DNA of 64,000 nt, from contig CATKXS010000003.1 in NCBI GenBank assembly GCA_949841045.1, positions 7,796 to 71,795 on the forward strand, in the 5' to 3' direction. The position numbers were made by a program, and so were the translations under genes. The notes below the pieces were generated by a model. It was not told the DNA's origin. It ran no database searches and was given only the letters and a program-made list of their open reading frames with translations. The stretch comes from an uncultured Clostridia bacterium (lineage in GTDB: Bacteria > Bacillota > Clostridia > Christensenellales > UBA1242). Below are positions 1-58,762 of the stretch, in pieces. Each line of letters begins with the position of its first letter. Positions within the stretch are counted from its first letter, which is position 1.

Positions 1-3000
1 AGGTCGGCAAGAGAGTAACAATTATTCATTTCAACTACTGCAGAAACACTGTTTGCGACTTCACCAACAATTCCACCAAGTTTAGCACCAGCGTACATAC
101 CAGAAATAGATAATTTACTTGATTTTACAGTAACTTCACCAAGCTTAAGTTGACTTGAAACATAACCAACAGCACCACCAATGTTGGTTGAAGCTGAAAT
201 ATCACAATCAACCACACTTTCTTCAATTTGCGAGCTGACAACACCTCGAGCTTCAACAACACCTACAATTCCGCCAACGTAACCTATTGCTGGCTCATTT
301 TCGCTGTTTGTTGCTCTAAAGCTTTGACCTACATAAGCATTTGAAATACTGCCGCCCGTTAACTTTCCAGCAATTCCTCCAACACCTTGCGCCGCTTTAG
401 GAATGTTTACAAACGAAGACTCTACATTGCCATTGTCAGAAACATAAGAGTACTTCATTGAACCTGCATTTTCACCTACAATATAGCCTGCAAAGTGATT
501 TGCTCTAAGTTTTGCACCACTTGTAACATTTACAAATGAATATTGGACGTCACCGCCACTGCCAATTCCACCAAAAACAAAGCCCGTTCTACTTCCTGTT
601 ACGCTAGTTATTCCGTCCGCATGAGCATTATAAACTCTACCGCTTCCAACATAGCCAATTAAACCGCCAGCATAAGAATATGAACTTACCATTCCAGAAT
701 TTTCAACATAAGTATTGTCATCAATAGGCGAATAAACAGACCATACGTTTACATTACTGTAAATATCCTTAGCCTCGAATTCAGTTGTTGCCCTACCAAT
801 AATACCACCTACAAAGTTTAATCCAGAAACAGCTTCAAGATTGTGTTCATGTGCATCTACTGTTATGTCATAAATATATCCATAATTGAGTATACCTGCA
901 AGAACACCAACATTATTAGTATTATTGAAAATTACCTCTTTTGGAGCAATGGTTAAGTTTTTGACACTACCAATTTGATTTGCTGAATATCCAATTTGCG
1001 AGAATAATCCACCGTTTGTTCTTGAACTCATATATACAAGGCCTATTCCAGAAATTTCCATTCCATTTCCTTCCATATTTCCTGCATATATTACTCTATA
1101 TAGACTTGAGTGAGTTGGAAAGTCAATATAACTAATATCGCTTATAATTCTATAATCGGTAACATTAAGATTATTCAATGCTGTCTGATTAAGGATTTCA
1201 TCTTCCATTGTTTGACTATTATGAATAAGTCTTGGATTATGAATTGTACCTCTATCAGGTGCATTATCATCATCTATATAATTATAAGTAACATTTCCTG
1301 TTGCCTCGTCAATATCTGAATGCGAGAAATTTCTTACTGAAAGAGTTCTAACATTTGGAGCAACCAGACTTAGTCTGTTTTTACCAAATTCTAAGAGTTC
1401 GGTCTTGAAAATAGTATTACTTTGACTTACTCCACCCTCTTCATTTGGAAGAACAACTTTTTCTGTTGTAGGAACATACTCAACATAATCGTTGGTCAAA
1501 AAGCCTTGCGAGAAGAACCACACTGATTTTGTACTTATATTTTCATCATAAGAATAATCTTTGAAAAATTCATCAATGTTTCCAAAATCTTCCTCAGTAA
1601 TTCTTTCAACGCCTTCATATGCAACATTATAAAGAGATACGTTTATTCCATTAGTTAAATCATATAAATAATAGCAGTTTTCAAAAGTACCATTTCTTGA
1701 CTCACTAACTCCATCTCTAGCAAAACCAGCAGAAGCAGTTGTTCCACTTCTTAAAATTGATAATGAGAAACAATTTTTGATTGTTCCACCATTTTTATAA
1801 GCAAAACCTGCCATATCAGATGAAGTTCTTGCAAGATAAATATCTGTATAACAATCTTTTATATAACCTCTATTGTCATATATAAAACCGCCGCTTGCAA
1901 AGGTAGAAGAAATATAACTATCTGTGTCATGACTATAAACTTGAGCTCTTGACTGAGCACCTGAAACATAACTTGTTATGATTTTACCATCAATTGTGTT
2001 TGTAAGTACCAGTCCTGCACTGTGTTGGTCATAGTTTGAATTATTTATAATTTTGCCTTTTTCAAAGTAACATGCAGCGATATTCTTATTGTTTTGTGCA
2101 ACAAGACCTGCAATATTATAAGGCATCTTTGCATTTATGCTTACACCGCAGTTTGTGATATAACCGTTGTTATATCCAACAAGACCGCCAGCAAGACTAT
2201 TTCCAGTAAGAGCATTATCAGCCCTTATTGTTAAATAATATTCATTATTTTCTACCGTGTCGGTATAAACTTGGCAGTTTGTAATAATACCAGAGTTTTG
2301 TGCAACTATACTTCCAAATACAAAGTTATCAGAAGTTGTGACAAATTTAACTGTTCTAAGACCATACAAACCGTAGATTGCGTCATCTGGATTATTATTA
2401 AAATCTGAGCCGTCTGATGAAGAAGTATAATTTACAATAAGGTTTTTAATAATTGAGCCATCATTTAAACTGCTAAACAGTCCAATTTCACTCAAATCCC
2501 CCATATCATAAACTCCAGCGAAATTTATGGCATGCTCATTTCCGTCAAGTGAAGCAAAATTACCATTAAGTGGAGTAAACGCTTTCACTCCTTCACCCTC
2601 ATCATCAACAGAAGGAAGAGTGATGTCATTTAAGAGAATATAATAACCACCCTCTTGCATGTTGATAAAGTCACTATAACTATAAATTGGAATAGGACTC
2701 TCTTCACTACTGCTTGAATATACGCTTAATACAAAAGTTGTTGAGACGCGTCTATTTATTCCACCATTTGAGTTTTCCCTAGCACCATACATTCCAGATT
2801 CGGCAGCATAGTAACCTTCATAAGTAAAATAGTAGAATTTTTCTTCAGGAATATGAGTACGCTTAGGAGTTAATCTAAGACCAGTAGAATTGAAATAATA
2901 ATTATTATTTTCAATTTCATTTCCATTTTCATAACCAAGATTATATGAAAGTCTAGGCTCGCTCGTTGAACCCGCCATTTTATAGTCTGGTTGATTATCG

Positions 3001-6000
3001 CTTATAAGATTTGTATAAGCAGTCCAAGAACCAACTCTTTCAAGACTTGCCATAAATTCTTCAATCTTATTTACAACACCACTAATGCTTGGATTGTATT
3101 CAATAAATTGATATAAATCAAGTTCAAAGGTAGTGCGAGTACCCACCTGCATATTTATAACGCCATTTCCCATACCTTTGACAATATCAGGATTTACAAC
3201 GTTTTCATTATAATTTATAACATATTCATAAATGATAACTTTTGTTCTACTTTCAGCCGTTCTTACACTTTCACCATCTTGTTGTGAAGCTGAAGAGATA
3301 ATCTCTATTTCGTTTGCTCCATCTTGATAATTTATATTGCCTTCAGTAATGTTCAAATAGTAAGTGCCGTTATCGTTTATAATTCTTCCGTACGAAGGAT
3401 TTGAAGAAACAATATTTATATTGTCTTGTCTAAATCCATAGGAATTTATATTGAGTTTATATGACATGCCTCTTGCAACTTCATAAGTCATATAAGCACC
3501 AGCTTGATTTGCAATACCCTCTTTACCATCAATTTCAACAGAAACAAAGTTTTGAAGTTTTATTGTCAGTTCTTTACTTGCACTGTAAACAACCTCTCCG
3601 TCTTTATAAACAGAAATAATTATTTTTGATTTACTCAAGTCAACTACATTATTTGAACTGAAATCATATTTAATATAAACATTTCCGTTATAATCGACAT
3701 ATTTCTCATCAGAATAAGCGCTAATAAGTTCTTCTTGAGTGATTTTTAAGCCTTTGGTCACAATTGAACCTGAGATTTTGCTATCGTCAAACAATTGTTT
3801 GTCCTCATAACCCTTATTTCTTGATAAGAATACAAAGTTTGCACTTGCTCTTCCACTATTATAATTTGCATCATCATTTTCAATCAAAATATAATCAAAA
3901 TCACTATCAGATGGATTAATTGTAAAAGCAAGGAGTCCACTCTTGCCTGGATAAGCAAGGTCAGATGTCGATGTAAGACCGCTATCAGAGGTTATTTCAT
4001 CAAGAACTGTATAATTATCAATAACTATTGAAGTTATACCAGTCTTTTCAAAATCTAGTTCTATCATAAGAGATTTTGCTGAATTGCTTGCAGATTGAAT
4101 GAATAACAAATATCTGCCATAAATATTTTTTTCATATCTATTAAGATATAAGCTTGAATTTGTATTAATAGTTATTTTAACAATAAATTTGCAGTTAAAC
4201 ATTCCATTGCCAAGACTTTCAATTTCGCCATTTTTCTTAATGTCTACCTTAAACAAACCTTCATTTTTAGCAAATTGGTATTCATTTTTATTTATATCAT
4301 CACCTTGCAGAAGTTTGTCATCAAGCCCTACAATATAATATTTAGGAATGTCCTCACTTTGGTCAGTAGTCAAGATTGTAATTTGCTCTTCGACACCCTT
4401 ACTTGTATAAATTGGAACATTATTATAGTTTGTGTTGAAAATATCAAGTGCACCATATTTATAGTCCACTTTAGTATCATAAATGGTTTTATTTACGCTA
4501 GCAAAATAAATTTCTTCACCAACAGTCCTTTCAAGTCGTGGAGTAATTCTAAGTTTATATACCCCTTCACTGGTGCTTGCAAGCCTCTTTATTGTTATAG
4601 TCTGACCAACAATCGAAATATCAAGTTGACCTTCTAACAGTTCGCCGTTATCGCCAACAACTTCAACATTTGCAGATACATCAGTATTTGAAGCAAGATT
4701 GAATGCCATTCCGCCATAAGAAGCTTCTCCTCTTGAGTTTGAAACAAAACTATTAAGTCCATTCTCATCGCTTACGAAGTTATATTTTGGAAGAACATAT
4801 AAAGTTGCTGAATTGTTTCCTCGTAGTTCGATAGTTGCATCGTCTACAGCAACAGAAGAAGATGCTGATGTTGGATAAATAATTGACGTTCTATCATCAT
4901 TATTTTCTATTAATCCTTCAGTATCAAAGTAATTCACAACATAAATATAGAAATTAAGAGCATTGTTTGAATTTAAAATACTTGAAGCTGAAACAAGAGC
5001 AAGTCCTGTCTTTTTAATAGTCATTTTTCCATCATAATCAATAGACAAAATGTCTGTTGATTTAGAAGTAAATATCATTTCACCATAAGCTTTGAAAGGA
5101 TAAAGACCACTTGTCATTGACAAATTATTTAAGTCTCTATTAATTAAATTTTGGAGTTCGGCAACATCTCCATTTTCATCTGAAATTGAGCCAACTTCAA
5201 AGAAATATGCATAATACATATCATTTGCTTCGGCATGCATTTTATTAAGTTTGTTTGCAAAATTTGCATCTATAGACAAATCTTGAACATTCCCCTTTGC
5301 AAACTTCGCCTGATAAGTGATTTGATTTTGATTGCCAGTTTGACCTACAACTACAAAGTCACCATAATAAATTGTTCTACTTGCATTTGAAATAATTGGA
5401 GAATCTTTAGTTATATCAACATAATCACGCGAGATATATGAATAAACATTCGCAACACTGTCAATTGTGTTGTTTATACTTAAGCATGTTACTCCATGAC
5501 TAAAGTTACCAAATCCTAATCTATTATAATCAAGCACACCATTACTTTCATAACCATTTGGCAATTCTGACGCATAAAGCACTAGCATTGCACTTTCTTC
5601 ATTTACCTTTCCATCATCAACTGCCTGAATGGCAAAAGAAGAATTAAGACCATTTCCAGTTGCTTGTTCAATATTTGCAACAAGCGCAATATTAGCCGCT
5701 CTTACCCCAGCTTGTTTTCCTCTAATGAAAGTTCTAGTTGTTATTCCAGTAAATTGGTTTCTATCCGTAATGCCAGTAAATCTACCAACAACTCCACCAA
5801 GATAACCATAACCATTGATTTCGCCACCAACAATCATTCCATTGCCAGCTACAAATCCATCAAGGTATTCTGTCTTATAATTCGCATAAGCATTGAAGTC
5901 GCCATTTGCATTGTTGAATCCGCCAACAATGAGACCTCCCGTCTCACGAGTCGCACTATTTACAACGATTTCACTTTCTCCGGCAATACCACCGACATAA

Positions 6001-9000
6001 GAATTTAAGTTTGTAACACTTGGCAAAGTTGTTGAATAATTTGTTCTAATTAAAGAATAAGCCATGTAGTTAAGTTGACCGCTTAAAGATATAACTTTAC
6101 TGTCAACCTTTCTTATTATGCCTTTATTAATTCCCGCAACACTACCTATGCTTCTTGTTGCTCTCGTAACATAAACATTATAAGAAACGTCTAAATAGTC
6201 GTTCATAAATAAAGTAATATGAGGTGCAAGCCCGCTATAAGAAAGCCTTCCATGCTGTGAAAGTTGAGCAGGACTTAAAGACCTAGTTGCAGAATTATCC
6301 GCCTCAAATAAAGTAAAATCTTGAATAATTTCACCATTATTTACACCAACAATTCCACCTAAATAACAGTTTCCTTCTACTATAATGTTTACATTTGATT
6401 TATTAATAACGGTGCCAACATTTATAAGACTACCATTATTTTCACCTGCTACAAGTCCAATATATGAGGTTTCTTCAATATTGAGGTCAAAATTACCTTC
6501 AAATTTTATATATTCAATATAAGCCCCTTGAGCAATTTTTGAGAATAATCCAAAGTATTTTTCACCTTCAATTGTCAAATTTGTATTGTTTGCAATTGAA
6601 ATGCCTGTAATAGACGCAAAATCAGTCACACCAATAATAGAACCACTAAGTTCCCCTAAAGGCAACTCGTTTAATATAGAAGAAACATCTATTGAAGTTT
6701 TTAGTCGATAATGAGCTGAAAGATTGTTTTTTATAAGAAGAAGGTCGTCTACATTGTTTATTGTAAATCTAAGTTTTTCACTTCCGTTTGCAAAAACTGT
6801 CTTAATAGAAATTGCTTTTTCATTGTATCCGCTACGCAAATTTCCATTTCCATCAAGCCAATCGCTTGCAACTATCAAAATTTCACCCTCAATCGTTTCA
6901 GTAAAACTTTCTGCAAATCTTATAAATTCATCATTGACCTTAAAGCTTATTTGAGTTTTTCCATCACTGACAACATAAGAAATAGAATCTTTATCAATCA
7001 TTTGGTATTCTTTGTTGTTCTCATCTACTATAGTTGCACCAGAAACAATTGCACGAAGTTCGGCGTTTGTTGCATCGTTATTTGTTGGGAATGCAATAAC
7101 GCTCTGCTCAGGTTTTAAAACTGAAAATTCAAATTCTGTAACTGGAGATTGTAAGCTTATTCTATCAACTTCGTTGTAGACGTTGATATTAATATTTATT
7201 GTAAAAGAATAAATTTGACCATACTGCATAACATGTGCAACCAAGGTTATTCTTGCACCATTTGTAAGATTATCAAATGCAGTGAAAACCATTTTTTCTG
7301 TATCAAAAGTACCATATGAGCCTATTGTATAAACATTGCTTTGATTTGGCGAATAATACATTTTATTAACATAAACGCCATTTCTAAGTAATGCTGATTC
7401 ACTTTCAAAATAGATAAATTCTTTTAAAAATCTGCTTGGGATAAAATTGTTGTTTTCAGGATTTTGGAATAAATATGCTTGGTCATTTTTTAATGTAACT
7501 TCAATTTCTGCCTGCCTAAGCTTATCAAAATATGTGTTGGAATAAACATTTATATAGTTTGCGCTGACATTTTCTTCATATTCTTCGACAAATCCGTCTC
7601 TAAGTTTATTTACCCTTATACCTTCAGCCAAATCATAAGTAACTAAATTAATTATGTAATCAATACTTATAGTATCACATACAAAGTTTTCTATTATATA
7701 ACCTTGTACACTAATTTTAATTTCGTCACTGCCATTATGTGAAGAATAAAATAGATAATTTCCATTTTCTTCAAGCTTCATTGATATATTTGAACTTTCA
7801 ATTAAAACATCAATGCTGTTTATTGCAGTTGAATTATTTTTTCCATTTGCAATTACTCTTAAATCGAAGTAGCTTCTACCATTTTTATTAATAAGATAAA
7901 TAAGGCTTTGATTTTCACCGTCCTCTTTTAATCTTATTGAATTATCCTCATTTGATGATTGAACGGTAAGAGAATTAAGTGCTTCTCTAACATTAATTGT
8001 AAACGTAGTACGCGTTCCATTATCAAGAGTGATAGTATAAGTTCCCGAGCCGTTGTCGATAGGCAACATCTTTATATTTAAATAATATTTGCCATCTATC
8101 AAATTAAACATATCGTTTTCATCATAATTAAAACGAACAACATCTTTACCAGATTCAAGAGCAAAAGACATGCTTGAGAATTGTGCGTCAGAATAAATGT
8201 TACTAAAAGTCTTTTCCCCACTAAATCTTTCTAGATAAATATTTTCTCTAAATTCCTCATTTTCAAATTTGAGAGCTGTTGCACCCTTGAGAATTTGATA
8301 TTTAATGTTAGTTTCAAGGCTGTCTTCTTGAATAACATTAAAATCCATTTTCACAGGTAAACTAGCAACTTCTGATGTTACTTCAGCATTTTCTCCACCT
8401 TTAATATAAACAGGTTCTCTTAGATTTGTTATTTGTACTGGACGATTTACATAAATATTGTTTAAATATTTAATTTGCAGATTTGTACCAGTTAAGTCAA
8501 GCACTAAATTATCATATTCAGCACCCTCAGGAATAACTGAAAAGTTGAATGCTTGCCAACCTGAATCATCAGAGGCGTAGTTATTATAAAAATTGTATAC
8601 TTTGTTATTTTGAGTAAAGTTGACATTATTAATGAGTAAATTAGTAGGTATAATTCTAATTTCAATAGGAACACTGAACGTATAATTAACGTTTTGGTCT
8701 TCACTATTTTCAAATCCGTCATAATAGAAATTTAAATCAAAGAAAGTTGAATTTGCACTTCCGCTACCGCAATTTACTTCTATATAATAAATTGTATTTT
8801 CGCCCGATTTTAAAGTGTTTAAAATCTTGCTGTTTGCAATATTATTATTTCTTGTTTTTGCTTTTAAATTTAATAGTTCATTTGTTTTAACTGTCACTTC
8901 TAGATAAGCAGTCAAGAAATTGGCTGTATAACCTACTAAAAGTGGATTATCTTTAATAGCTGCACTATAATTTGGAATTAAAGTTATTTTCCCAGATTTA

Positions 9001-9968
9001 AGTTCGTCAATTTTATATGAAGTATTTTCAAGTCCTGGAACAAAGTCTCTCTCACTTATTTTAAAGCCATATTCATGCGAAAAATTATTTGGATTTATAT
9101 CTGAGATAAAGCTAAATTCACGCTCGCATATAATTATTTCTTTTTCTCCAATTTGTTCAACAGAAGAAGCCTCATATTTAGCAACAAAGGTAAATTTCAT
9201 GCCAGGATTTACTGACGAGGCTATCTCTTCATTAAAACTAAATTCGCCTTCTTCATTAGTTACATCAATAAATTCATATCTTACATTTTCACTTTCGTCA
9301 ACAATTTGCGACCTTCCCAATGTATGCAAAAGCCCATCTTTGTCAGTAAAGATGAGATAAGCATTGTCATTCAAATTGTACACTTGAACTCTTGTGAAAT
9401 TATTCACATAAAGGTCGTTTTCTTTAATATCTTCTATGGTTAAACTGCCCTCTACCTTGTTTTGACCATAAAAATAATATTCAAGTTCTCTTTCAGTTGA
9501 ACTTTCTTTAAAAGTAAAATCGGAAGAAGCTGGTTCAAGCGCTGTTGTGTCAGACACATACAATCCATTCTCCCCTTTCACTAGTTTGTCAGAGTATTCC
9601 TTAACAAAAATTGTAAGATTGAAAGTTTTTACACCTTCAATAGTAACAAACTCAACAGTAGTTCTTCCACCACTTAAACCTTTAACTGAATAAGTTGTGG
9701 TATTGTTTTGGCTAGCAACTCTTTGGATTTGTACAACCTGCTGATTTGAACTTGTAAATCTTAAACCCTTATTCATTTTGTCAACAGGCCTTTCTATGGT
9801 TATGCTAACCTCTTGCTCTTCATTAACAAAAAGCTCTAAATATTCTCCACAAGAAGATGAAAGATAAGTATTTGAATAATCTAACTTGCCACAAGCAACA
9901 AAAAGGAAGCTTGCAATAACAAGCACTAAACTAAATATAAAAATGCTAAGCTTTTTAGATTTAATCAT
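1..9968 (-). CDS. Giant cell-surface lipoprotein, 3' end cut by the window edge (at least 3322 codons); GLUG-motif repeat arrays plus Ig-like (Big_2-like) modules
   Basis: The minus-strand frame whose codons occupy plus-strand triplets starting at coordinates divisible by 3 is open from the ATG at 9968-9966 to position 3. I hand-translated 9968-9720, 6002-5916, 2222-2142 and 119-3 and found no stops. The supplied track lists no stop-bounded ORF in this frame, so it evidently omits ORFs without an in-window stop. SD AAGGAG lies at 9973-9978, 4 nt before the ATG, and there is an in-frame upstream stop at 9990-9992. The N-terminus MIKSKKLSIFIFSLVLVIASFLFVAC-GK is a lipoprotein signal peptide with a lipobox. 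Read directly: LRFTSSNQQVVQIQR (Big_2-like), SLAGGLVGYNNGYITNCGV, YVGGIAGESEIVVNSATRETGGLIVGGF, and KLGGIVGEVANSVSAVVEMNNCYS (GLUG-type). G-G-[ILA]-[VIA]-G cores recur about every 100 nt in ~60-910, and further arrays lie at ~1700-2520 and ~5790-6650. Confidence 0.85.
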   Translation of the reverse strand, partial: MIKSKKLSIFIFSLVLVIASFLFVACGKLDYSNTYLSSSCGEYLELFVNEEQEVSITIERPVDKMNKGLRFTSSNQQVVQIQRVASQNNTTTYSVKGLSGGRTTVEFVTIEGVKTFNLTIFVKEYSDKLVKGENGLYVSDTTALEPASSDFTFKESSTERELEYYFYGQNKVEGSLTIEDIKENDLYVNNFTRVQVYNLNDNAYLIFTDKDGLLHTLGRSQIVDESENVRYEFIDVTNEEGEFSFNEEIASSVNPGMKFTFVAKYEASSVEQIGEKEIIICEREFSFISDINPNNFSHEYGFKISERDFVPGLENTSYKIDELKSGKITLIPNYSAAIKDNPLLVGYTANFLTAYLEVTVKTNELLNLKAKTRNNNIANSKILNTLKSGENTIYYIEVNCGSGSANSTFFDLNFYYDGFENSEDQNVNYTFSVPIEIRIIPTNLLINNVNFTQNNKVYNFYNNYASDDSGWQAFNFSVIPEGAEYDNLVLDLTGTNLQIKYLNNIYVNRPVQITNLREPVYIKGGENAEVTSEVASLPVKMDFNVIQEDSLETNIKYQILKGATALKFENEEFRENIYLERFSGEKTFSNIYSDAQFSSMSFALESGKDVVRFNYDENDMFNLIDGKYYLNIKMLPIDNGSGTYTITLDNGTRTTFTINVREALNSLTVQSSNEDNSIRLKEDGENQSLIYLINKNGRSYFDLRVIANGKNNSTAINSIDVLIESSNISMKLEENGNYLFYSSHNGSDEIKISVQGYIIENFVCDTISIDYIINLVTYDLAEGIRVNKLRDGFVEEYEENVSANYINVYSNTYFDKLRQAEIEVTLKNDQAYLFQNPENNNFIPSRFLKEFIYFESESALLRNGVYVNKMYYSPNQSNVYTIGSYGTFDTEKMVFTAFDNLTNGARITLVAHVMQYGQIYSFTINININVYNEVDRISLQSPVTEFEFSVLKPEQSVIAFPTNNDATNAELRAIVSGATIVDENNKEYQMIDKDSISYVVSDGKTQISFKVNDEFIRFAESFTETIEGEILIVASDWLDGNGNLRSGYNEKAISIKTVFANGSEKLRFTINNVDDLLLIKNNLSAHYRLKTSIDVSSILNELPLGELSGSIIGVTDFASITGISIANNTNLTIEGEKYFGLFSKIAQGAYIEYIKFEGNFDLNIEETSYIGLVAGENNGSLINVGTVINKSNVNIIVEGNCYLGGIVGVNNGEIIQDFTLFEADNSATRSLSPAQLSQHGRLSYSGLAPHITLFMNDYLDVSYNVYVTRATRSIGSVAGINKGIIRKVDSKVISLSGQLNYMAYSLIRTNYSTTLPSVTNLNSYVGGIAGESEIVVNSATRETGGLIVGGFNNANGDFNAYANYKTEYLDGFVAGNGMIVGGEINGYGYLGGVVGRFTGITDRNQFTGITTRTFIRGKQAGVRAANIALVANIEQATGNGLNSSFAIQAVDDGKVNEESAMLVLYASELPNGYESNGVLDYNRLGFGNFSHGVTCLSINNTIDSVANVYSYISRDYVDITKDSPIISNASRTIYYGDFVVVGQTGNQNQITYQAKFAKGNVQDLSIDANFANKLNKMHAEANDMYYAYFFEVGSISDENGDVAELQNLINRDLNNLSMTSGLYPFKAYGEMIFTSKSTDILSIDYDGKMTIKKTGLALVSASSILNSNNALNFYIYVVNYFDTEGLIENNDDRTSIIYPTSASSSVAVDDATIELRGNNSATLYVLPKYNFVSDENGLNSFVSNSRGEASYGGMAFNLASNTDVSANVEVVGDNGELLEGQLDISIVGQTITIKRLASTSEGVYKLRITPRLERTVGEEIYFASVNKTIYDTKVDYKYGALDIFNTNYNNVPIYTSKGVEEQITILTTDQSEDIPKYYIVGLDDKLLQGDDINKNEYQFAKNEGLFKVDIKKNGEIESLGNGMFNCKFIVKITINTNSSLYLNRYEKNIYGRYLLFIQSASNSAKSLMIELDFEKTGITSIVIDNYTVLDEITSDSGLTSTSDLAYPGKSGLLAFTINPSDSDFDYILIENDDANYNSGRASANFVFLSRNKGYEDKQLFDDSKISGSIVTKGLKITQEELISAYSDEKYVDYNGNVYIKYDFSSNNVVDLSKSKIIISVYKDGEVVYSASKELTIKLQNFVSVEIDGKEGIANQAGAYMTYEVARGMSYKLNINSYGFRQDNINIVSSNPSYGRIINDNGTYYLNITEGNINYQDGANEIEIISSASQQDGESVRTAESRTKVIIYEYVINYNENVVNPDIVKGMGNGVINMQVGTRTTFELDLYQFIEYNPSISGVVNKIEEFMASLERVGSWTAYTNLISDNQPDYKMAGSTSEPRLSYNLGYENGNEIENNNYYFNSTGLRLTPKRTHIPEEKFYYFTYEGYYAAESGMYGARENSNGGINRRVSTTFVLSVYSSSSEESPIPIYSYSDFINMQEGGYYILLNDITLPSVDDEGEGVKAFTPLNGNFASLDGNEHAINFAGVYDMGDLSEIGLFSSLNDGSIIKNLIVNYTSSSDGSDFNNNPDDAIYGLYGLRTVKFVTTSDNFVFGSIVAQNSGIITNCQVYTDTVENNEYYLTIRADNALTGNSLAGGLVGYNNGYITNCGVSINAKMPYNIAGLVAQNNKNIAACYFEKGKIINNSNYDQHSAGLVLTNTIDGKIITSYVSGAQSRAQVYSHDTDSYISSTFASGGFIYDNRGYIKDCYTDIYLARTSSDMAGFAYKNGGTIKNCFSLSILRSGTTASAGFARDGVSESRNGTFENCYYLYDLTNGINVSLYNVAYEGVERITEEDFGNIDEFFKDYSYDENISTKSVWFFSQGFLTNDYVEYVPTTEKVVLPNEEGGVSQSNTIFKTELLEFGKNRLSLVAPNVRTLSVRNFSHSDIDEATGNVTYNYIDDDNAPDRGTIHNPRLIHNSQTMEDEILNQTALNNLNVTDYRIISDISYIDFPTHSSLYRVIYAGNMEGNGMEISGIGLVYMSSRTNGGLFSQIGYSANQIGSVKNLTIAPKEVIFNNTNNVGVLAGILNYGYIYDITVDAHEHNLEAVSGLNFVGGIIGRATTEFEAKDIYSNVNVWSVYSPIDDNTYVENSGMVSSYSYAGGLIGYVGSGRVYNAHADGITSVTGSRTGFVFGGIGSGGDVQYSFVNVTSGAKLRANHFAGYIVGENAGSMKYSYVSDNGNVESSFVNIPKAAQGVGGIAGKLTGGSISNAYVGQSFRATNSENEPAIGYVGGIVGVVEARGVVSSQIEESVVDCDISASTNIGGAVGYVSSQLKLGEVTVKSSKLSISGMYAGAKLGGIVGEVANSVSAVVEMNNCYSLAD

Positions 9969-10015
9969 TTTTCTCCTTTTTGTTAAAATTTACTTCAGTT
10001 AAACTATTACAAGAA

Positions 10016-10136
10016 GCGACATGCTTGCTTGCAATAGCATTCGCGCCGCAGCCTAAAAACACAAGGAAGCGTTTGATTTATCAAACCAATTGCGACAGCA
10101 ATTTAAAATTTTAAGCTTGTCTTAAAATTTGCTTCC
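10016..10136. other. Repeat unit A predicted fold: variable-stem hairpin (10016-10044) plus four-helix junction (10065-10136); candidate structured RNA or DNA element, strand undetermined
   Basis: Hairpin: GCGA(c)ATGCT, loop tgcttgcaat, AGCAT TCGC. Junction: the closing helix GGAAGC 10065-10070 pairs with GCTTCC 10131-10136 and encloses GTTTGA-ttta-TCAAAC (10071-10086), AATTGC-gaca-GCAATT (10088-10103) and AAATTTTAAG-cttgt-CTTAAAATTT (10106-10130), with only 0-2 nt linkers. Confidence 0.6.
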
Positions 10137-10156
10137 GCTAAGTGTTATTACAAGAA

Positions 10157-10276
10157 GTACGAACTTGCTCGCAAGAGTGAGTACGCCGCAGCCTAAAAAC
10201 ACAAGGAAGCGTTTGATTTATCAAACCAATTGCGACAGCAATTTAAAATTTTAAGCTTGTCTTAAAATTAGCTTCC
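10157..10276. other. Repeat unit B predicted fold: variable-stem hairpin (10157-10184) plus the same four-helix junction (10205-10276)
   Basis: Hairpin: GTAC(ga)ACT, loop tgctcgcaag, AGT(ga)GTAC. Almost every stem position differs from unit A yet pairing is kept, and 8 of 10 loop positions are conserved. The junction is identical to unit A except that one base shortens the third hairpin by 1 bp. Confidence 0.6.
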
Positions 10277-10282
10277 GCAGTG

Positions 10283-12964
10283 TTACTTTTTCTTACGTTT
10301 TTCAATAATAGAATAAACATAAGGAAGAGGTCTTATTTGAACCATAGTTCTTGATGTAGGTGAAGTAATAATAAATGACTGACCAACAGACGCACTTACA
10401 ATACGATTTCTCTCCTCTTTATTGATACCGCCAGAGTTTTTATAAAGTTCAACAAGGTCGTTAACGTCATTTGGCGATAATGAGAATATGAGCGAATACT
10501 GACATGCGTTAATAACGGCGGTCGATTGTCTCTTAATTTCTTCAGAACCAACGAAGTCGTTGATATTCTGAGTAATAACAATCTGCATTCCACCATACTT
10601 ACGAATACGTTTAGCCATAGAAGTCATGAAGTTTAAGGCAATTGGATATTTAGGGTTAATGAAAATGTGAGCTTCATCAACGACTACGATAATCTTACGA
10701 TTTGTTCCATGAATATCGTTGTAGTCCTTGTTATTAATAACTTCACTTTCTATATACTTAAATACCAAAAGCATTTGAGCACTAGTAAGCATGTCGTTAT
10801 TACCTGCAATAAGAGATTGGAAGTTGAAGCAGACAAAGTTTTCGTTTGTTTCAATTGAAGTAGGGCCATTCCAAAGGTTGGCATTTCTTCCACCTTTTGC
10901 AAACTTTCTGATATAAGTTTGTGCAATTCTCAAATTATTTAATACGAAATCCTCTTTTGCTTCCTCAAGTTTTTCTTGAAGAAGTGCATATAAATCATCG
11001 AAAGTTGGATAATCTTCAGGTTTTAAATATTTTAAATCAGTTGTTTCGTCAATATTTTTTCTTTCATACATTTCAAGAATTAAAGTATTGATAACCTCGA
11101 ATGCATCAGAAGAGATACCTTGTAAGATTGTTCTTAAAAATTGTTCAAGGAATTGAAGGTGCTGATTGAAAGAATCGTCAGTTTTCTTTTTAACGGCCAC
11201 TTCACCCTCTTCTTCCACGCCTTTATTTTCATCATCGTCTTTATCTAGCGCTCTAATAACGTTGAATGGATTAATTATACCTTGCAATGATGAACCAACA
11301 TCAATTTGTTTTCCATGCAATTGGTCTGAAAGTTCTGAATATTCTTTTTCAGGGTCGCAAATGAAGATTTTGGTATTATCAGCAGCAAAGTTTGCAAGAA
11401 GTGTTTTTGTAGCGAAGGATTTGCCTGAACCTGATTTTCCAATAATCATCATATTAGAGTTTACGCGCTGTGCATCACGAGTGAAAAAGTCAATAAATAC
11501 TGGGTAAGCATTATCTCCGAGGTAGAATCCACCCTCATCTTGAAGTTCTGATGAAACAAATGGGAATACACCGGCAAGCGTATAAGTAGGTATACCTCTT
11601 TGAAGTTCTTTAATGTTATCTCTCATTGAGATACCAGAGCTGATAAAACCATCAATCTGTCTAGCAAAGAGTTCGGTAAACCTATAACCTCCCTGCTTAA
11701 GCATAGACTTAATTTCTTTACGAGCAGAATCTTCACATGTGATAAATGTGTTTATATCATAGAGTTGTTGGTTTGAAGTTTTAAGTTCGCTAAGAAGATT
11801 TCTAAGAGTGTCAAGGTGTGTCTGGATTTCAATTCTGGTACTACTCTTACCAGTCTTTGACATTTTTGTCTCCATATCCATAATAGCCTTATCAATCTTC
11901 TTTTCAGATTCATATTGTGGTGCTTTTTTAAATTTCATCACAACCTTTGTTTTGTCAAGAAGGAAGAATGAAGTTCCCCAAGCGTTTCCAACTTGAAGAG
12001 GATATTCATTTAAAGCATAAGTCCTATACCCTACACCATCAATTTTGTATTTAGCTGATGAAAATTTAATATTGTTTGGAGTAGCCCAATCAAGATAACC
12101 TGAGTATGGAACATTTTCAAGGTCACGTTCATTAAACTCTCTAGTGTAGTTGGCTTTAATAAATATTGCAAGGTCGCTTCCAACAAGACGTCTTGAAGAC
12201 ACTGGAGTAAGACATGAAGCGAGTGAATTTGCCATACCTGTTAAAGTATTATCAAGAGCGTCAAGGTCTTTGCCCATTACTACAAGATAGAAAAAGTCCT
12301 TATAAATCTTATCAGTTCTATTTTTGTTTTCAATGAAGTTTACACGTTCTTCAAAAATAGGTGCTCTCGCGTCAACCTCTTCTTGACTCATTTGTTTCTC
12401 ATACAATTGGTCAAGAAGTCTATCATATTTTTTGTTTTCTATGTATGCGTAATTATCAAGCACCATCGCCTTATTGATTTTAACAAGTTCGCAAACTTGG
12501 TTATCATCAAGTCTTCTTAGTGCATTTCCAAAACCAACGTCAATTACATTATTTTGACTGTATTCATTTAAAAGGTCAAAAAGAATTGGTTTAACTTCAA
12601 GTACCCCTGCATAATAACTACCATAAGAAATGAACTTATCCTCATAGATTGATTCAAAAGGAATAATCTCTTTCATATTTGGTTTTCCAGACTTAGGAGC
12701 TTTCGAATATTTTTTCTTTTGAAGGGAATATTTTGCAAGGTGCGTGAGCGTAACATAAAATCTATCACTGTCTGCAATTTTGAAAAATAGTGAGAGCCCT
12801 AATATAGCCCACACCATCGCAATCCAAATGTGACCAGGAAAGTTTGATGCAGCGAGCACGATAAGCACTGCAGCAACAACAAGTGCAATAACAAGGTCGA
12901 TACCTGTAAAGCCTCTAATAAATTCAAGCTTAACTTTAGTTCTTCTTGGAACAATTCTTACCAT
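10283..12964 (-). CDS. VirB4/TraE-family type IV secretion ATPase with a fused N-terminal two-TM PrgI/VirB3-like segment
   Basis: 893-aa ORF with an ATG start and a GAGG SD 5 nt upstream. Two N-terminal TM helices (GIDLVIALVVAAVLIVLAASNF and HIWIAMVWAILGLSLFF) follow a VPRRTKVKLEF motif typical of PrgI-like proteins. Walker A GKSGSGKS is at 11417-11440 (residues 509-516). Walker B VVVDEAH is at ~10667-10693. The overall layout matches Firmicute conjugation VirB4 homologues (Tn916 Orf16, TcpF, PrgJ). Confidence 0.8.
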   Translation of the reverse strand: MVRIVPRRTKVKLEFIRGFTGIDLVIALVVAAVLIVLAASNFPGHIWIAMVWAILGLSLFFKIADSDRFYVTLTHLAKYSLQKKKYSKAPKSGKPNMKEIIPFESIYEDKFISYGSYYAGVLEVKPILFDLLNEYSQNNVIDVGFGNALRRLDDNQVCELVKINKAMVLDNYAYIENKKYDRLLDQLYEKQMSQEEVDARAPIFEERVNFIENKNRTDKIYKDFFYLVVMGKDLDALDNTLTGMANSLASCLTPVSSRRLVGSDLAIFIKANYTREFNERDLENVPYSGYLDWATPNNIKFSSAKYKIDGVGYRTYALNEYPLQVGNAWGTSFFLLDKTKVVMKFKKAPQYESEKKIDKAIMDMETKMSKTGKSSTRIEIQTHLDTLRNLLSELKTSNQQLYDINTFITCEDSARKEIKSMLKQGGYRFTELFARQIDGFISSGISMRDNIKELQRGIPTYTLAGVFPFVSSELQDEGGFYLGDNAYPVFIDFFTRDAQRVNSNMMIIGKSGSGKSFATKTLLANFAADNTKIFICDPEKEYSELSDQLHGKQIDVGSSLQGIINPFNVIRALDKDDDENKGVEEEGEVAVKKKTDDSFNQHLQFLEQFLRTILQGISSDAFEVINTLILEMYERKNIDETTDLKYLKPEDYPTFDDLYALLQEKLEEAKEDFVLNNLRIAQTYIRKFAKGGRNANLWNGPTSIETNENFVCFNFQSLIAGNNDMLTSAQMLLVFKYIESEVINNKDYNDIHGTNRKIIVVVDEAHIFINPKYPIALNFMTSMAKRIRKYGGMQIVITQNINDFVGSEEIKRQSTAVINACQYSLIFSLSPNDVNDLVELYKNSGGINKEERNRIVSASVGQSFIITSPTSRTMVQIRPLPYVYSIIEKRKKK

Positions 12965-45374: not shown

Positions 45375-46343
45375 ATGTTAGATTTTATGAACACATCTCA
45401 ACTTGCTGCATTTTACTTAGGACTCATCTTCTCTGTCCTTACAATTGCAACATCATTACTCGCATTTAAATATGCAAAAAGATTGGACTCTTTTCCAAAA
45501 GCTCTCGCTATTACTTTAATTGCACCTTTCATTGCTGTTGTTTCTTGGCTATACCTTGTACTCAGCTTTACTGATGGACTCAGAAAAAATGATGCTCTTA
45601 CACTTGTAATTGCAATTTTACTTTCAGTATTTGTATTTGGTATGATTATTATCGTTTCAAAAGCACTTTACTCTAAGCATGGTGACGCTTTAGAAGAAGC
45701 TGACCAACTTAAAGAAATGGAAAGTGAAGAGACTGAAAATAAAGAAGAGAAGAATGAAGAAACTGCAGAAACTCCAGCACAAGCTATCCCACTACTCCTT
45801 GAAAACACTGCTGAAGATGAAGTTGCTATTATTGTTGAACCAGTAGAAGAAGCTGAGGAAACAGAAGAAGTTGAAACTCTTTCTGAAGAAGATGCTGAAG
45901 CTGTCGTTGAAAACGAAGAAGAAGTAGCTACAGAAGAAACTACTGAAGAAAATGAAGAAACTTCTGACGTTGAAGAAAACGAAGTTGAAGACGCTAGCGA
46001 AGAAGTTACAGAAGAAATAGACGAAGAAACTTCTGAGGAAGAGTCAACTGAAAGTGAAGAAGCTTCTGAAGAAATGGAAGAAGAGACTACAGAAACTGAA
46101 GAAGAACAAGTTGACGAAATCGTTGAAGAAGAAGTAAATGAAGAAAGTGAAGAAACTTCTGAAGAGCCTGAGACAGACGAAACAGAAGAAACAAGCGAAG
46201 AAACTTCTACAGAAGAAAGTGAATCTGAAGACGAAGATGAAGAAGATGATGATGACGATTTCGAAGAATTCTTAGAAGAACTCAGAAGAAAAGTTGAAGA
46301 AAGCAAAAAAGAGACTAACGACGAAGATAGTGATAACGAATAA
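45375..46343 (+). CDS. Three-TM membrane protein with a ~200-residue polyacidic (E/T/S-rich) tail
   Basis: 322 aa: three hydrophobic helices, then a low-complexity glutamate-rich sequence. GGAGG SD upstream. Confidence 0.6.
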   Translation: MLDFMNTSQLAAFYLGLIFSVLTIATSLLAFKYAKRLDSFPKALAITLIAPFIAVVSWLYLVLSFTDGLRKNDALTLVIAILLSVFVFGMIIIVSKALYSKHGDALEEADQLKEMESEETENKEEKNEETAETPAQAIPLLLENTAEDEVAIIVEPVEEAEETEEVETLSEEDAEAVVENEEEVATEETTEENEETSDVEENEVEDASEEVTEEIDEETSEEESTESEEASEEMEEETTETEEEQVDEIVEEEVNEESEETSEEPETDETEETSEETSTEESESEDEDEEDDDDDFEEFLEELRRKVEESKKETNDEDSDNE

Positions 46344-53939: not shown

Positions 53940-54072
53940 GTTGAAATAAAATCTTATCCATAGACAGCAAGCGGATTTCCGTAAACACAGTTTGTGTGCT
54001 TGCCGAGGAAAAAGGTATATATAGGAAGTTTTTCTCTATGCTTTTTTCCGAAGGCATAGAGATTTTTATTTT
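53940..54072 (+). promoter_or_regulatory. Ribosomal protein L10 (rplJ) leader with a terminator/attenuator hairpin
   Basis: Structured ~130-nt 5' UTR between the promoter and rplJ. AGACAGCAAGCGG...CTTGCCGAGG pairing is followed by TCTCTATGC 54033-54041 pairing with GCATAGAGA 54054-54062, then TTTTTATTTT. Position and architecture fit the Firmicute L10 leader. I did not verify this against a covariance model. Confidence 0.55.
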
Positions 54073-54108
54073 AATTACACAATATTCATTAAAGGAGGAA
54101 AAGATTTC

Positions 54109-54624
54109 ATGGGTGCTAATTTAGAAGCAAAAAAACTTATTGTTGATGAAATCAAAGACAAGCTTTCAAGAGCAAAATCTGTGACTTTCGTTGATTATAA
54201 TGCACTTACTGTTGCTGAAGACATGGAAATGCGTAGAGAGTTCAAAAAGAACGGCGCTGAATACAAAGTCTACAAAAACAAATTATTGCTCCTTGCACTC
54301 AACGAACTTGGAATCAATGGTGCCGAAGAATTCTTACATGGCACTAGTGCGGTTGCTTTCAGTTATGATGATGAGGTAAGCGGTCCAAAAATTACCTGCG
54401 AAACAGCTGAGAAAACTAAGAAATTAACCGTAAAATTTGGTTTACTTAATGGTAATTTCGTTGAAAGCAAGGAAATTGAAGCTCTGGCAAAACTTCCAAG
54501 CAAAGAAGTTCTTATTGCTACTCTTCTTCGTACTCTCAATGCCCCTATTACTGGGCTTGCTAGAGTATCTATCGCCCCTGTTGAGGGTCTTGCAAGAGCA
54601 TTAAATGCTATTGCAACAAAATAA
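54109..54624 (+). CDS. rplJ: 50S ribosomal protein L10
   Basis: 171 aa with AGGAGG SD. Typical L10 sequence, directly upstream of rplL. Confidence 0.93.
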   Translation: MGANLEAKKLIVDEIKDKLSRAKSVTFVDYNALTVAEDMEMRREFKKNGAEYKVYKNKLLLLALNELGINGAEEFLHGTSAVAFSYDDEVSGPKITCETAEKTKKLTVKFGLLNGNFVESKEIEALAKLPSKEVLIATLLRTLNAPITGLARVSIAPVEGLARALNAIATK

Positions 54625-54702
54625 CACTCCTTGTAATAGTCAATTACATGGAAATATTAAATAAAAAAATGGGAAAAACCCAAATTTAGGAGGAAATTTA
54701 AA

Positions 54703-56875: not shown

Positions 56876-58735
56876 TTATTCATTCTCATTTTCTGGTTCA
56901 GCAAAGGTTTGGAGTTCTTCATAAACCAAAGCATTTTTAGTAATGAGTAAAGACTCTTCATTAACCTTTTTGAAGCATTTTGGTCTTTGTTTTGTAGGTG
57001 TTTCCTTAACTTCCACCTCTTCTACAACTTCTTCAGCCTCTTTTGTTTCTGGAGCTTCTTCGATTTTTTCATCGACTTCTTCTGTTTTGACGTCCACGCG
57101 ATTTTTGTAATCATCAATTACTTGCATGATTGCCTTTGCGTCTTTGAGTTTCAAAACATTCATAACCATATCTTCAATGGCGCCCTCTCTGTCTGGACCA
57201 TCAAAATCAATATCTACATATCCGAAATGGTTTACAACTTCATCTAATAATACTTTAAGTACATCTGCATTTCTTGCATCATCAACGAAAGAAAGAATTG
57301 TTGGCTCACCCCTGAAGTTTGAATGATTCAAGAAATCTTCAATGTTTTCATGGTCTAAACTTAAGAAAAGTGTTTTGATAGCATCTGCATAATCTTCGTT
57401 ATTATCGCTCCCATAGTAAATATATTTAAGAGCATTGTCGCCATTTTCATCAATAGCGGTTGGGTCAAATTTACCATTAACTACAAGTTTACCAAGCATA
57501 TCAAAATTCTTTGTTTCGACAAGTCTTGCAAAAGTATCATGTGGATTTGGTGCATTCAAATCAATATTTGGACTATTGATAAGTTTTTCAAAGCAGTACT
57601 CGTCAGCAACTGTTGCAGCATAGAGAAGTGCATTATTAGTAGCCCCAGAAGCATTTATGTCAAGCCCTTTGTGAGCTAAAAGCATATCAAAGATTTCTTT
57701 GCTTCCCTCTTTACCCTCTTTCACACTATCAATTGCATACATTAAAGCATTTTTCATTTCAACTTTATACTTACCAAGCTCGTTATTAACAGCAAAAGCA
57801 TTAACATCTACATTTTTAGCTAAAAGTGATTTAACAAGGCTTACGTCACCCTCTTTTACTGCAAGCATAAGAAGTGTTTCGTCGTTTTCACCAGCTAAGT
57901 CATAATTTACATCATTACGCTTTAAAAGTCTGTTGAAAAGAGTCTTATCCTCAAGTTTATATAATTCGGTTAAAATACTTCTGCCATTTTCATCTATTCT
58001 ATTTACATCATAATCAGGTCTGTTTAAAAGAATCTTTGCTTTTGCGATAGCTTCTTCGTTACCCTCTTCAATATCTTTTAAGTTGCATAAAATAACATCT
58101 TTTCCAGCATTAACATCTATATCTTCACGAGCTAAAAGTTTTTTAAAGTCTGTCAAATCTGCATAATTTAAAGGAGCAAAGCCTTTATTGTTTGTTTTGT
58201 TTACGTCAATATTTTTATGGTTTAATATTAAATCGAAAGCCTCATGGTCTCGAATATCAGCAGCTATACTGAGTGCAGTATTACCCTCATCATTAACTAA
58301 ATTAACATCAAGCCCATCTTTATCTAAAATCATGCTTAAAATTTCAGGGTCTTTAGAAACGCAAACTTGATATATTAATGCCGAACCAAATTTATTACAA
58401 TGATTCACATTAAAATCTCTTCTGGTCCATTGTGCTTTTAAGATAGCTTTATACTTATCATAATCGTCAGTACCTTTTGCCCCAACAGTTTGAACAATAA
58501 GAGATTTTATTGGAGTAACTCTAATTGAATTTTCAAAATTCATATCAATTTTTCTATTCTTAAAACATGCCTTCATTATAGCAAATTGTTTATTTTCAAT
58601 AGCCCACATAAGAAGGTTGTTATTTTTGTCATCTACTGGCAAGTTAATTTCATCAACTTCAATTGAAGCAAGTTTCAAAAGAGATTTATATTTTTTCTTT
58701 TCAATAGCCTTAGCAACTTTTGCTGTGTATTCCAT
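56876..58735 (-). CDS. Ankyrin-repeat protein, no signal peptide, acidic C-terminal tail
   Basis: Multiple ANK-like units, e.g. GNTALSIAADIRDHEAFDLILNHKNIDVN and ETLLMLAVKEGDVSLVKSLLAKNVDVNA. Start placed at ATG 58735 after GGAGGTG, not at the track GTG at 58741. Confidence 0.75.
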   Translation of the reverse strand: MEYTAKVAKAIEKKKYKSLLKLASIEVDEINLPVDDKNNNLLMWAIENKQFAIMKACFKNRKIDMNFENSIRVTPIKSLIVQTVGAKGTDDYDKYKAILKAQWTRRDFNVNHCNKFGSALIYQVCVSKDPEILSMILDKDGLDVNLVNDEGNTALSIAADIRDHEAFDLILNHKNIDVNKTNNKGFAPLNYADLTDFKKLLAREDIDVNAGKDVILCNLKDIEEGNEEAIAKAKILLNRPDYDVNRIDENGRSILTELYKLEDKTLFNRLLKRNDVNYDLAGENDETLLMLAVKEGDVSLVKSLLAKNVDVNAFAVNNELGKYKVEMKNALMYAIDSVKEGKEGSKEIFDMLLAHKGLDINASGATNNALLYAATVADEYCFEKLINSPNIDLNAPNPHDTFARLVETKNFDMLGKLVVNGKFDPTAIDENGDNALKYIYYGSDNNEDYADAIKTLFLSLDHENIEDFLNHSNFRGEPTILSFVDDARNADVLKVLLDEVVNHFGYVDIDFDGPDREGAIEDMVMNVLKLKDAKAIMQVIDDYKNRVDVKTEEVDEKIEEAPETKEAEEVVEEVEVKETPTKQRPKCFKKVNEESLLITKNALVYEELQTFAEPENENE

Positions 58736-58762
58736 AATCACACCTCCACATCATATATGAAA

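Follow-up and report, generated by a model that had tools for sequence, protein, structure and literature searches.

The DNA analysed here is a stretch of 64,000 nucleotides (nt) from an uncultured Clostridia bacterium (contig CATKXS010000003.1; the whole stretch is referred to as the window), and the element in question is a head-to-tail pair of units of about 140 nt at window positions 10005-10288, each made of a four-way junction (4WJ) and a second hairpin, which lies between an ATPase gene and a giant lipoprotein gene. Our data favor the interpretation that this pair is a two-unit array of a structured interspersed repeat, probably of selfish origin and brought in by insertion, and not a control element of the giant gene.

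The two units appear as direct repeats with a spacing of 140 nt (10024-10138 and 10164-10278; 115 nt, 92% identity), although the pair is missing from the output of the tandem-repeat program TRF, and repeat and covariance-model searches of the window gave no copies beyond these two. The 94-nt stretches 10045-10138 and 10185-10278 show a single difference, T versus A at 10130/10270, while the hairpins of the two units differ heavily, yet each of them pairs. Since both flanking genes are encoded on the minus strand, any mRNA carries the reverse complement of the letters given in the initial annotation of this locus. The array fills the gap between the ATPase stop codon (10283-10285, minus strand) and the ribosome-binding site (RBS) and ATG (9968, minus strand) of the giant open reading frame (ORF): the head of unit 1 overlaps the stop codon (UAA|CAC...), and the tail of unit 2, ...CUUCUUGUAAUA, is followed by 36 nt (10004-9969) with the RBS at 9973-9978, and then by the ATG at 9968. 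In these respects, i.e., a tandem structured element of about 140 bp, a junction closed by GGAAGC/GCTTCC with three perfect hairpins, copies that differ at 1 of 94 positions, and occupation of the whole gap from the stop codon to the RBS, the initial annotation is in agreement with our results. The units and their modules are as follows.

10146-10288, minus strand: unit 1 (copy B of the initial annotation), first in gene direction; covariance model R1, made from other genomes only, matches here over its full length (1-141) at 10145-10288 (45.3 bits, E 9e-9), and nhmmer matches at 10146-10279.
10198-10284, minus strand: module 1 of unit 1, the 4WJ, with outer helix AACAC/GUGUU, closing helix P1 GGAAGC/GCUUCC, hairpin 1 (10247-10269), hairpin 2 (10228-10243) and hairpin 3 (10211-10226); assigned from minimum-free-energy (MFE) folds and coordinates, and the homologous helices covary in the family.
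10146-10184, minus strand: module 2 and tail of unit 1, hairpin GUAC-UC-ACU[CUUGCGAGCA]AGU-UC-GUAC, tail CUUCUUGUAAUA; assigned from 33/40 identity to the family 'type a' consensus, the covariance-model alignment and the energies of alternative folds.
10005-10145, minus strand: unit 2 (copy A of the initial annotation); nhmmer match at 10005-10140 (E 5.8e-10), direct repeat D1 (92%) and sequence.
10058-10146, minus strand: module 1 of unit 2, the 4WJ; assigned from MFE folds, sequence and coordinates. Its 72-nt core (10065-10136) is one base off the core of unit 1 (T/A at 10130/10270).
10005-10044, minus strand: module 2 and tail of unit 2, a hairpin variant that has diverged, GCGAAUGCU[AUUGCAAGCA]AGCAU-G-UCGC, its tail being that of unit 1; assigned from sequence, comparison of types and fold energies.

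Each unit has the order 4WJ, linker, second hairpin. The closing helix GGAAGC/GCTTCC is formed by 10065-10070/10131-10136 and by 10205-10210/10271-10276 and encloses three perfect hairpins of 9-10, 6 and 6 bp, and the outer helix AACAC/GTGTT lengthens the closing stem in each unit. A 296-nt region holding the array is predicted to fold with -86.1 kcal/mol on the plus strand (z -5.74 versus shuffles) and -95.3 kcal/mol on the minus strand (z -5.66). The initial annotation had drawn a variable hairpin in module 2, and both copies do pair in this way; on the gene-sense strand, however, the most stable fold of module 2 is an alternative hairpin, in which the 'conserved loop' (UUGCRAGCAAG) pairs with the conserved tail CUUCUUGUAA, G.U pairs included (-8.6 versus -3.0 kcal/mol in copy B, and -17.0 versus -9.4 kcal/mol in copy A). 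Both alternatives hold a compensatory difference between the copies, and two sequences cannot decide between them. The hairpin drawn at first is the homologue of the second module of the family described below, where its basal stem covaries, and the family data thus support that basal stem. We also considered whether the hairpin-1 loop RCAAG might form a kissing interaction with CUUGC of module 2, and rejected the idea, as no joint change was seen by eye when either of them varies.

To place the array in its evolutionary context, the same gap can be compared across relatives. A search with the ATPase gave 79 related loci, all from metagenome-assembled genomes (MAGs) of uncultured gut Clostridia, with 46-86% protein identity and about 1 Mb of sequence in total, and in nearly all of them the giant gene lies directly downstream of the ATPase gene. 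Of the 72 loci in which the intergenic gap can be measured, 47 have one of at most 60 nt, often of 9-20 nt, and 70 of these 72 orthologous gaps are without any family element. Longer gaps carry unrelated sequences, with the sole exception of locus L033, where a gap of 409 nt holds a tandem pair with a 146-nt period, of other sequence and the same architecture; hairpins 2 and 3 of its 4WJ differ between its two copies with pairing kept. Besides L033, nhmmer and covariance-model searches of the 1 Mb found no other family members in this gap. Judged from these sequences, the window array is an insertion into a spacer that is normally short (9-60 nt).

Other structured spacers occur at the same position. 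The close relatives L003, L004 and L007 have a different one in common, located behind the ATPase gene at about 8680-8860 and composed of a long hairpin (CAGTCAAAAT...ATTTTGACTG) and then AAAAACATTGATTTTT; it is unrelated to the family studied here. In L036 (3087-3347) the gap holds four or five short G+C-rich palindromes (CGCTTTAAGCG, GTGCTTTAAGCAC, GTGGCTAAGCCAC, GTGCCTCAGGCAC) of an appearance like that of repetitive extragenic palindromic (REP) sequences.

A related junction was also present at locus L021 in another context, between convergent genes, and for this reason one genome per species was scanned for hairpin 1 of the L033 type. The pattern matched 117 genome-contig stretches, and an nhmmer profile made from them yielded 190 hits spread over 36 MAGs, the highest number in one MAG being 21 (E14__bin218, HGM11367 and BRZ_EH__bin128 are among the copy-rich relatives); these counts are lower bounds, since repeats are expected to break assemblies and several of the patterned hits lie close to the start or end of a contig. 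None of the hits is inside an ORF: all copies are intergenic, in either orientation. They form 90 single loci, 35 doublets, 5 triplets and 3 quadruplets with a period mostly of 134-152 nt, so that some third of the loci are arrays of units in head-to-tail order, and the 140-nt tandem of the window is a typical arrangement of the family. Units are 134-152 nt long with about 30% G+C, and both window units align to the family from head to tail over the full length. A dispersed repeat family resembling transposable elements of the miniature inverted-repeat type (MITEs) or BOX elements was one of the roles offered in the initial annotation, and it is the one favored by the data: homologues are widespread in related genomes and their pairings are conserved.

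The window units belong to a subfamily with P1 GGAAG/CTTCC, hairpin 3 GTTTGAT-AA-ATCAAAC (in RNA, GUUUGAU-AA-AUCAAAC), linker UUAGGCUGCG and tail CUCCUUGUAAUA, of which 21 stretches, both complete units and junction-only copies, were found in three other MAGs (HGM11367, HGM11346 and H07681-L1_cleanbin_000057; whole-genome shotgun prefix CAVISZ). The hosts of family hits are labelled as gut MAGs of Clostridia, Christensenella-like bacteria, Eubacteriales, Lachnospiraceae or Firmicutes, and in one case Candidatus Caccovivens; as a whole, the family is that of an uncultured, low-GC clade of gut Clostridia. Rfam, at gathering as well as permissive thresholds, gave a ribosomal protein L10 leader at 53940-54077 as its sole match in the window, and the best matches to the element and to a canonical family copy were at most 20 bits (E at least 0.3). 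ARAGORN gave 0 tRNA genes in 9800-10500, and the loops of 4-5 nt and stems of 6-10 bp compare with D, anticodon and T loops of 7-8 nt in tRNA. The literature on MITE, REP and BOX elements yielded reviews and nothing that describes this family, which is apparently an undescribed structured interspersed repeat, in line with the initial view that no known riboswitch, ribozyme or named repeat was at hand. We recommend masking blocks of this kind in these MAGs, or annotating them as repeats; they probably break assemblies.

The structure of the family, as read from covariation among its copies, is kept by selection. Among 70 distinct units, 58 fold by MFE to the shape [[][][]][], i.e., a 4WJ and then a hairpin. 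For the covariation test, 108 matches were aligned to a covariance model, a fitting that leans towards the structure; in a plain MAFFT alignment RNAalifold mis-paired P1, whose 3' strand was misaligned, and a hand-specified structure with the covariance-model alignment was used instead. The share of cells with standard pairs is 93.9%; column shuffles give 80.0%, and sliding the partners by 1-3 columns gives 34-52%. Changes on both sides are seen in 44 of the 48 pairs, with 600 double-change cells versus 148 in shuffles, and 0 of 500 shuffles reach any of the observed covariation measures. Most of the covariation is located in hairpins 2 and 3 and in the basal stem of module 2 (AGCC/GGCU and AGUC/GACU; in the window GUAC/GUAC and GCGA/UCGC). 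The family-wide covariation agrees with the earlier proposal of selection on the structure, however, the compensatory change between the two window copies, from which that proposal was derived, is to be seen differently: the pattern of a same junction and a different hairpin is better read as two family variants, or as module exchange or conversion, than as compensatory evolution in place, because module 2 of unit 1 is near 'type a' and module 2 of unit 2 is diverged. At the orthologous sites L120:4369-4507 and L145:240-391 the 4WJ is nearly the same and the apex of module 2 is swapped (UUGCAAGCAAG versus AAAUACAACUAAAGUUGUGCUUGG).

G.U pairs and A.C mismatches are unevenly represented: on one strand, G.U outnumbers A.C by 184 to 53, or by 98 to 52 without one fixed U.G pair, and by pair position 24 favor G.U and 9 favor A.C. 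This is suggestive of one particular strand folding, which in the window would be the mRNA-sense strand; the excess is no more than suggestive since the copies are related. As a separate observation, two copies (L082:6277-6426 and L087:4236-4386) have the loop of hairpin 1 reverse-complemented (CUUGU or CUUGC, not ACAAG or GCAAG), which suggests inversion at the hairpin's own arms.

The ends of the units are informative about the sites at which they sit. Upstream flanks have the consensus ATAATA before the head TAAAC (six conserved bases), and the tail ...GATAATA is followed by TAAA (about four bases), so that both junctions resemble the tail-head junction of a tandem or circular form (ATAATA^TAAA). 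There are no terminal inverted repeats: the head ATATAAACTATGTG and the reverse complement of the tail, ATATTATCGGAAG, share only the first 4 nt (ATAT), and none are found in the window units either (head AACAC..., tail ...TTGTAATA). Upstream and downstream flanks are identical no more often than in shuffled pairings for k = 2-5, i.e., no target-site duplication is detected, and the left flank and the tail do not co-vary, which indicates similarity of targets and not duplication of a target. A long target duplication, suggested by right flanks that look like heads, was rejected, as these flanks are explained by adjacent units of other subfamilies or partial units together with the similarity between target and junction. 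One pair of sister species offers a filled and an empty site, L116:5042-5181 being filled and L098 empty, with a difference of about 140 nt, or one unit; no duplication longer than about 2 nt is seen there, but the flanks have diverged and the exact junction is uncertain. Within arrays, adjacent units have a median identity of 81%, versus 84% for unrelated loci of the same genome, and only 3 of 32 adjacent pairs are at least 98% identical.

From these observations we infer a mode of movement, a single-stranded intermediate and an effect on the operon. The unit would insert, without inverted repeats or target duplication, at A/T-rich sites that are like its own tail-head junction (ATAATA^TAAA); as such a target often contains TAA, it is expected that units land on stop codons, as seen in the window. 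Its own 3' end would recreate the target, so that new units could land beside old ones and build arrays of dissimilar units, and the finding that adjacent units are no more alike than distant ones agrees with new units landing behind old. The reason for keeping the fold would be a need for one specific strand to fold while the element propagates itself, in the form of single-stranded DNA or of RNA, and a putative trans-acting enzyme would recognise the folded strand. The window units are in sense orientation with the operon and probably co-transcribed as a very stable structured spacer of 280 nt, and any effect on mRNA stability, processing or expression of the giant gene would be a by-product.

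Several observations weigh against selfish insertion, or limit how far it can be taken. Mobility is derived from the distribution of copies and from the one between-species filled/empty pair with its diverged flanks, and neither excision nor a circular form was observed. In the window subfamily, the head (AACAC...) and the tail (GTAATA) differ from those of the main family, whose target logo fits them only loosely. In pieces of about 8 kb around 135 loci there is no protein that recurs beside the elements and no linked transposase or recombinase. The exact 39-mer core of the window units is absent from genome contigs, two probes of 22-23 nt from the window units (hairpin 1; hairpin 3 with the 3' strand of P1) matched no metagenome contig, and the protein collection holds the source species only as its own 82.7-kb contig, the next relative being at 86% identity. 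The G.U excess comes from related copies in an alignment fitted to the structure. Finally, copies are retained at orthologous sites with structure-preserving changes, which host function would also fit: the junction-only copies L116:5508-5588 and L098:1807-1895 have 4 differences, all compatible with the structure and including a compensatory change from A-U to G-C in P1, and the copies in L201 and L214 are upstream of the same folD-like gene.

The main rival is accordingly worded at the level of the host: a structured RNA module, acting as an mRNA stabiliser, as a platform for RNase processing or protein binding, or as a small RNA, would have been copied to many intergenic sites, and in the window the pair of sense copies would serve to protect or process the boundary where the ATPase message meets the very long one of the giant gene. 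We consider this unlikely. It would account for the very strong covariation in all helices, for G.U exceeding A.C on one strand, for the orthologous copies held in sister species (L098/L116 and L201/L214), for several 4WJ-only copies that precede an RBS and ATG of the same strand by 59-77 nt, and for the sense orientation and very stable fold of the window units. It does not agree with the orientation of the copies, which between co-directional genes is sense in 15 cases and antisense in 15; an apparent excess of copies oriented as the upstream gene (58 versus 31) is due to more insertions between convergent genes (9) than between divergent ones (5). Nor do the neighbours lend support, as junction-only copies are followed by genes unrelated to one another (YajC-like, FolD-like, HIT-like, DnaK-like and surface proteins), for which reason a riboswitch-like link of the 4WJ-only copies to these genes was rejected as well. 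Copy number and position vary between related genomes, the ATPase-to-giant-gene gap is element-free in 70 of 72 cases, and scans of the units in the window and in L111 revealed neither an intrinsic terminator (G+C-rich hairpin with a U-run behind it) nor a sigma-70 promoter (-35/-10 hexamers 16-18 nt apart). An outward promoter in module 2, TTGCAA-N17-TGTAAT, was rejected by the scan, its -10 element being without A at position 2 and the motif absent from other types of module 2, and a small ORF within the units was likewise discarded, just short, non-conserved frames being present. Strong covariation alone is no proof of host function, and tests of orientation and synteny are needed beside it.

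A dedicated leader, a processive-antitermination RNA or another cis-regulatory RNA for the giant gene, as envisaged in the initial annotation, is now very improbable. The array does lie precisely in the interval from the upstream stop codon to the RBS of the giant gene, in sense orientation and with a very stable fold, and in a second species (L033) this gap likewise contains a tandem pair of the family, though a different one. The comparative data, however, largely refute this role: the gap is at most 60 nt in 47 of 72 relatives and element-free except in L033, the element adjoins unrelated genes elsewhere, also in antisense, and there is no Rfam match. A covarying block of 280 nt before a giant gene thus mimics a riboswitch or leader, and comparative data show it to be a repeat.

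Still less credible is a DNA-level site, i.e., an origin of transfer (oriT), a single-strand origin or a cruciform, tied to a VirB4-like ATPase of a conjugative type IV secretion system (T4SS). The hairpins are perfect Watson-Crick pairings that either strand can fold, and TraG P-loop, AAA_10 and FtsK-like signatures are present in the ATPase next to the array. The two flanking genes, given here for context, are:

10283-12964, minus strand: upstream gene, an 893-residue P-loop ATPase (TraG P-loop / AAA_10 / DUF87, with FtsK-like signatures, from Pfam), which adjoins the giant gene in 79 related loci.
1-9968, minus strand: downstream gene, a giant lipoprotein ORF of >3322 residues that runs past the window edge; assigned from the open frame and a lipoprotein-like N-terminus, ...LFVAC.

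The genes of the window are housekeeping ones (around the ATPase gene HflX, M23 peptidase, Mfd and Pth, and further FtsH, LeuRS, CysRS, GerA, RecD2, ThyX and L10/L12), and no conjugation, relaxase, coupling-protein, other T4SS, integrase or transposase genes are found in its 64 kb. This neighbourhood leaves the conjugative reading of the ATPase, and the oriT idea with it, without support, and the ATPase probably does not belong to a conjugative T4SS. Moreover, the ATPase is syntenic in 79 genomes, nearly all of which lack the element, the family is dispersed at sites unrelated to it, and the asymmetry between G.U and A.C argues against a symmetric double-stranded cruciform. Neither blastn of the array against plasmids and phages nor two family probes in viral contigs gave a match. 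Least tenable of all is the idea that a chance palindromic sequence was recently duplicated in tandem at this locus, for which only the two copies in 64 kb and the 99% identity of their 4WJ parts speak, and which is refuted by full-length homologues in dozens of genomes, by differences concentrated in one module instead of being evenly spread, and by fold z-scores near -5.7.

Returning to the repeat as a selfish insertion, the family is closest in behaviour to small mobile sequences of the MITE, BOX and PATE (palindrome-associated transposable element) type. With MITEs such as Correia elements, RUP and Nezha it has in common a small size (about 140 nt), an A/T-rich, non-coding and tightly base-paired sequence, multiple intergenic copies and presence or absence between relatives, the MITE features being those listed in PMC3049150. 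The family differs in that it is without terminal inverted repeats, head and tail sharing only ATAT, in that no target-site duplication is detectable, and in its fold, a 4WJ with a hairpin where a MITE is one long hairpin formed from both ends. In the pieces of about 8 kb around 135 family loci, no insertion sequence (IS) with matching ends was found. The BOX elements of Streptococcus (boxA-boxB(n)-boxC) are likewise modular interspersed Firmicutes repeats with stable predicted RNA folds, in which modules may be absent or swapped, repeated in tandem and variable in length at orthologous sites (PMC3049150). In BOX, however, boxB is repeated between fixed ends, whereas the family repeats the whole two-module unit head to tail, and the reported similarity of BOX to the terminal inverted repeats of ISSpn2 (PMC3049150) has no counterpart, as no ISSpn2-like partner is seen for the family. 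At the level of sequence, the family presumably does not resemble BOX.

Elements derived from IS200/IS605 (PATEs), and the REP, BIME (bacterial interspersed mosaic element) and REPIN sequences mobilised by Y1 (HUH) transposases, are alike in lacking inverted repeats and target duplication, in their structured ends and strand-specific fold, in insertion beside a short conserved motif and in their clusters (on these families, see PMC3116915 and PMC3733652). The family itself combines the absence of terminal inverted repeats and of target-site duplication with a short motif beside the insertion (ATAATA|TAAAC; ATAATA|TAAA). REP sequences differ from it as G+C-rich palindromes of 20-40 bp with a GTAG or CGTC tag, compared with 134-152 nt, about 30% G+C and a 4WJ. 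The 64 kb of the window contain no gene for TnpA or RAYT, the clade genomes not having been scanned for one. Single-strand transposition of the IS200/IS605 type typically leaves a bias in orientation relative to replication. Local GC skew divides the arrays into 53 with a G-rich and 60 with a C-rich sense strand (p = 0.57), i.e., there is no such bias in the family, which argues against a mechanism of this type.

A likeness in behaviour only exists to integron cassettes, IS110-type elements and tandem prophage-like integration, since the target (ATAATA^TAAA) resembles the element's own tail-head junction, and a circular form recombining with a look-alike site would give such junctions and permit tandem integration. 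The family differs from these systems in being without an observed recombinase gene, circular junction or cargo gene, and in having many targets per genome instead of one attachment site. The combination of a perfect 4WJ with no inverted repeats, no target duplication and targets that mimic its junction was not found in Rfam or in the literature searched. More speculatively, and with little confidence, we suggest a new type of structure-specific mobile element, in which a folded strand of 4WJ and hairpin would be recognised by a putative dedicated recombinase or reverse transcriptase and inserted without inverted repeats or duplication at ATAATA^TAAA-like sites, its own tail included, by a mechanism distinct from that of DDE-type MITEs and, as no replication-strand bias is seen, from that of IS200/IS605-type elements. 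A partner enzyme, if found, could reveal a new way of moving small DNA in gut Clostridia with small genomes.

A trace of a further unit may be present elsewhere in the window:

54625-54639, plus strand: possible head-plus-tail remnant of a window-type unit, CAC + TCCTTGTAATAG; blastn E 0.007, directly after the L10 stop codon.

The TAA|CAC junction is the same here as at the ATPase stop codon (L10 gene 54109-54624; region 54604-54640), and these 15 nt are absent at that position in 35 related L10 loci, while the C-terminal codons of L10 are largely conserved; the segment has the look of a third unit's remnant or footprint. In unit 2, the 5' half of module 2 (GAATGCTATTGCAAG) resembles the native 3' coding end of the L10 gene. 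The L10 leader mentioned above (RF00557, 71.2 bits, plus strand) lies upstream of rplJ and is ordinary and expected.

As to the other genes, the ATPase and the giant lipoprotein gene directly downstream of it are a conserved pair in 79 species-level MAGs (loci L001-L079), and the 3322 visible residues of the giant protein have no Pfam match. Exact matches to three window proteins, sought for other strains, are not on record. An ORF at 45375-46343 (plus strand) encodes glutamate-rich tandem repeats (TRF arrays at 45909-46258) and has no Pfam match. A protein of 621 residues encoded at 56876-58741 (minus strand) contains ankyrin repeats, which are probably less common in bacteria.

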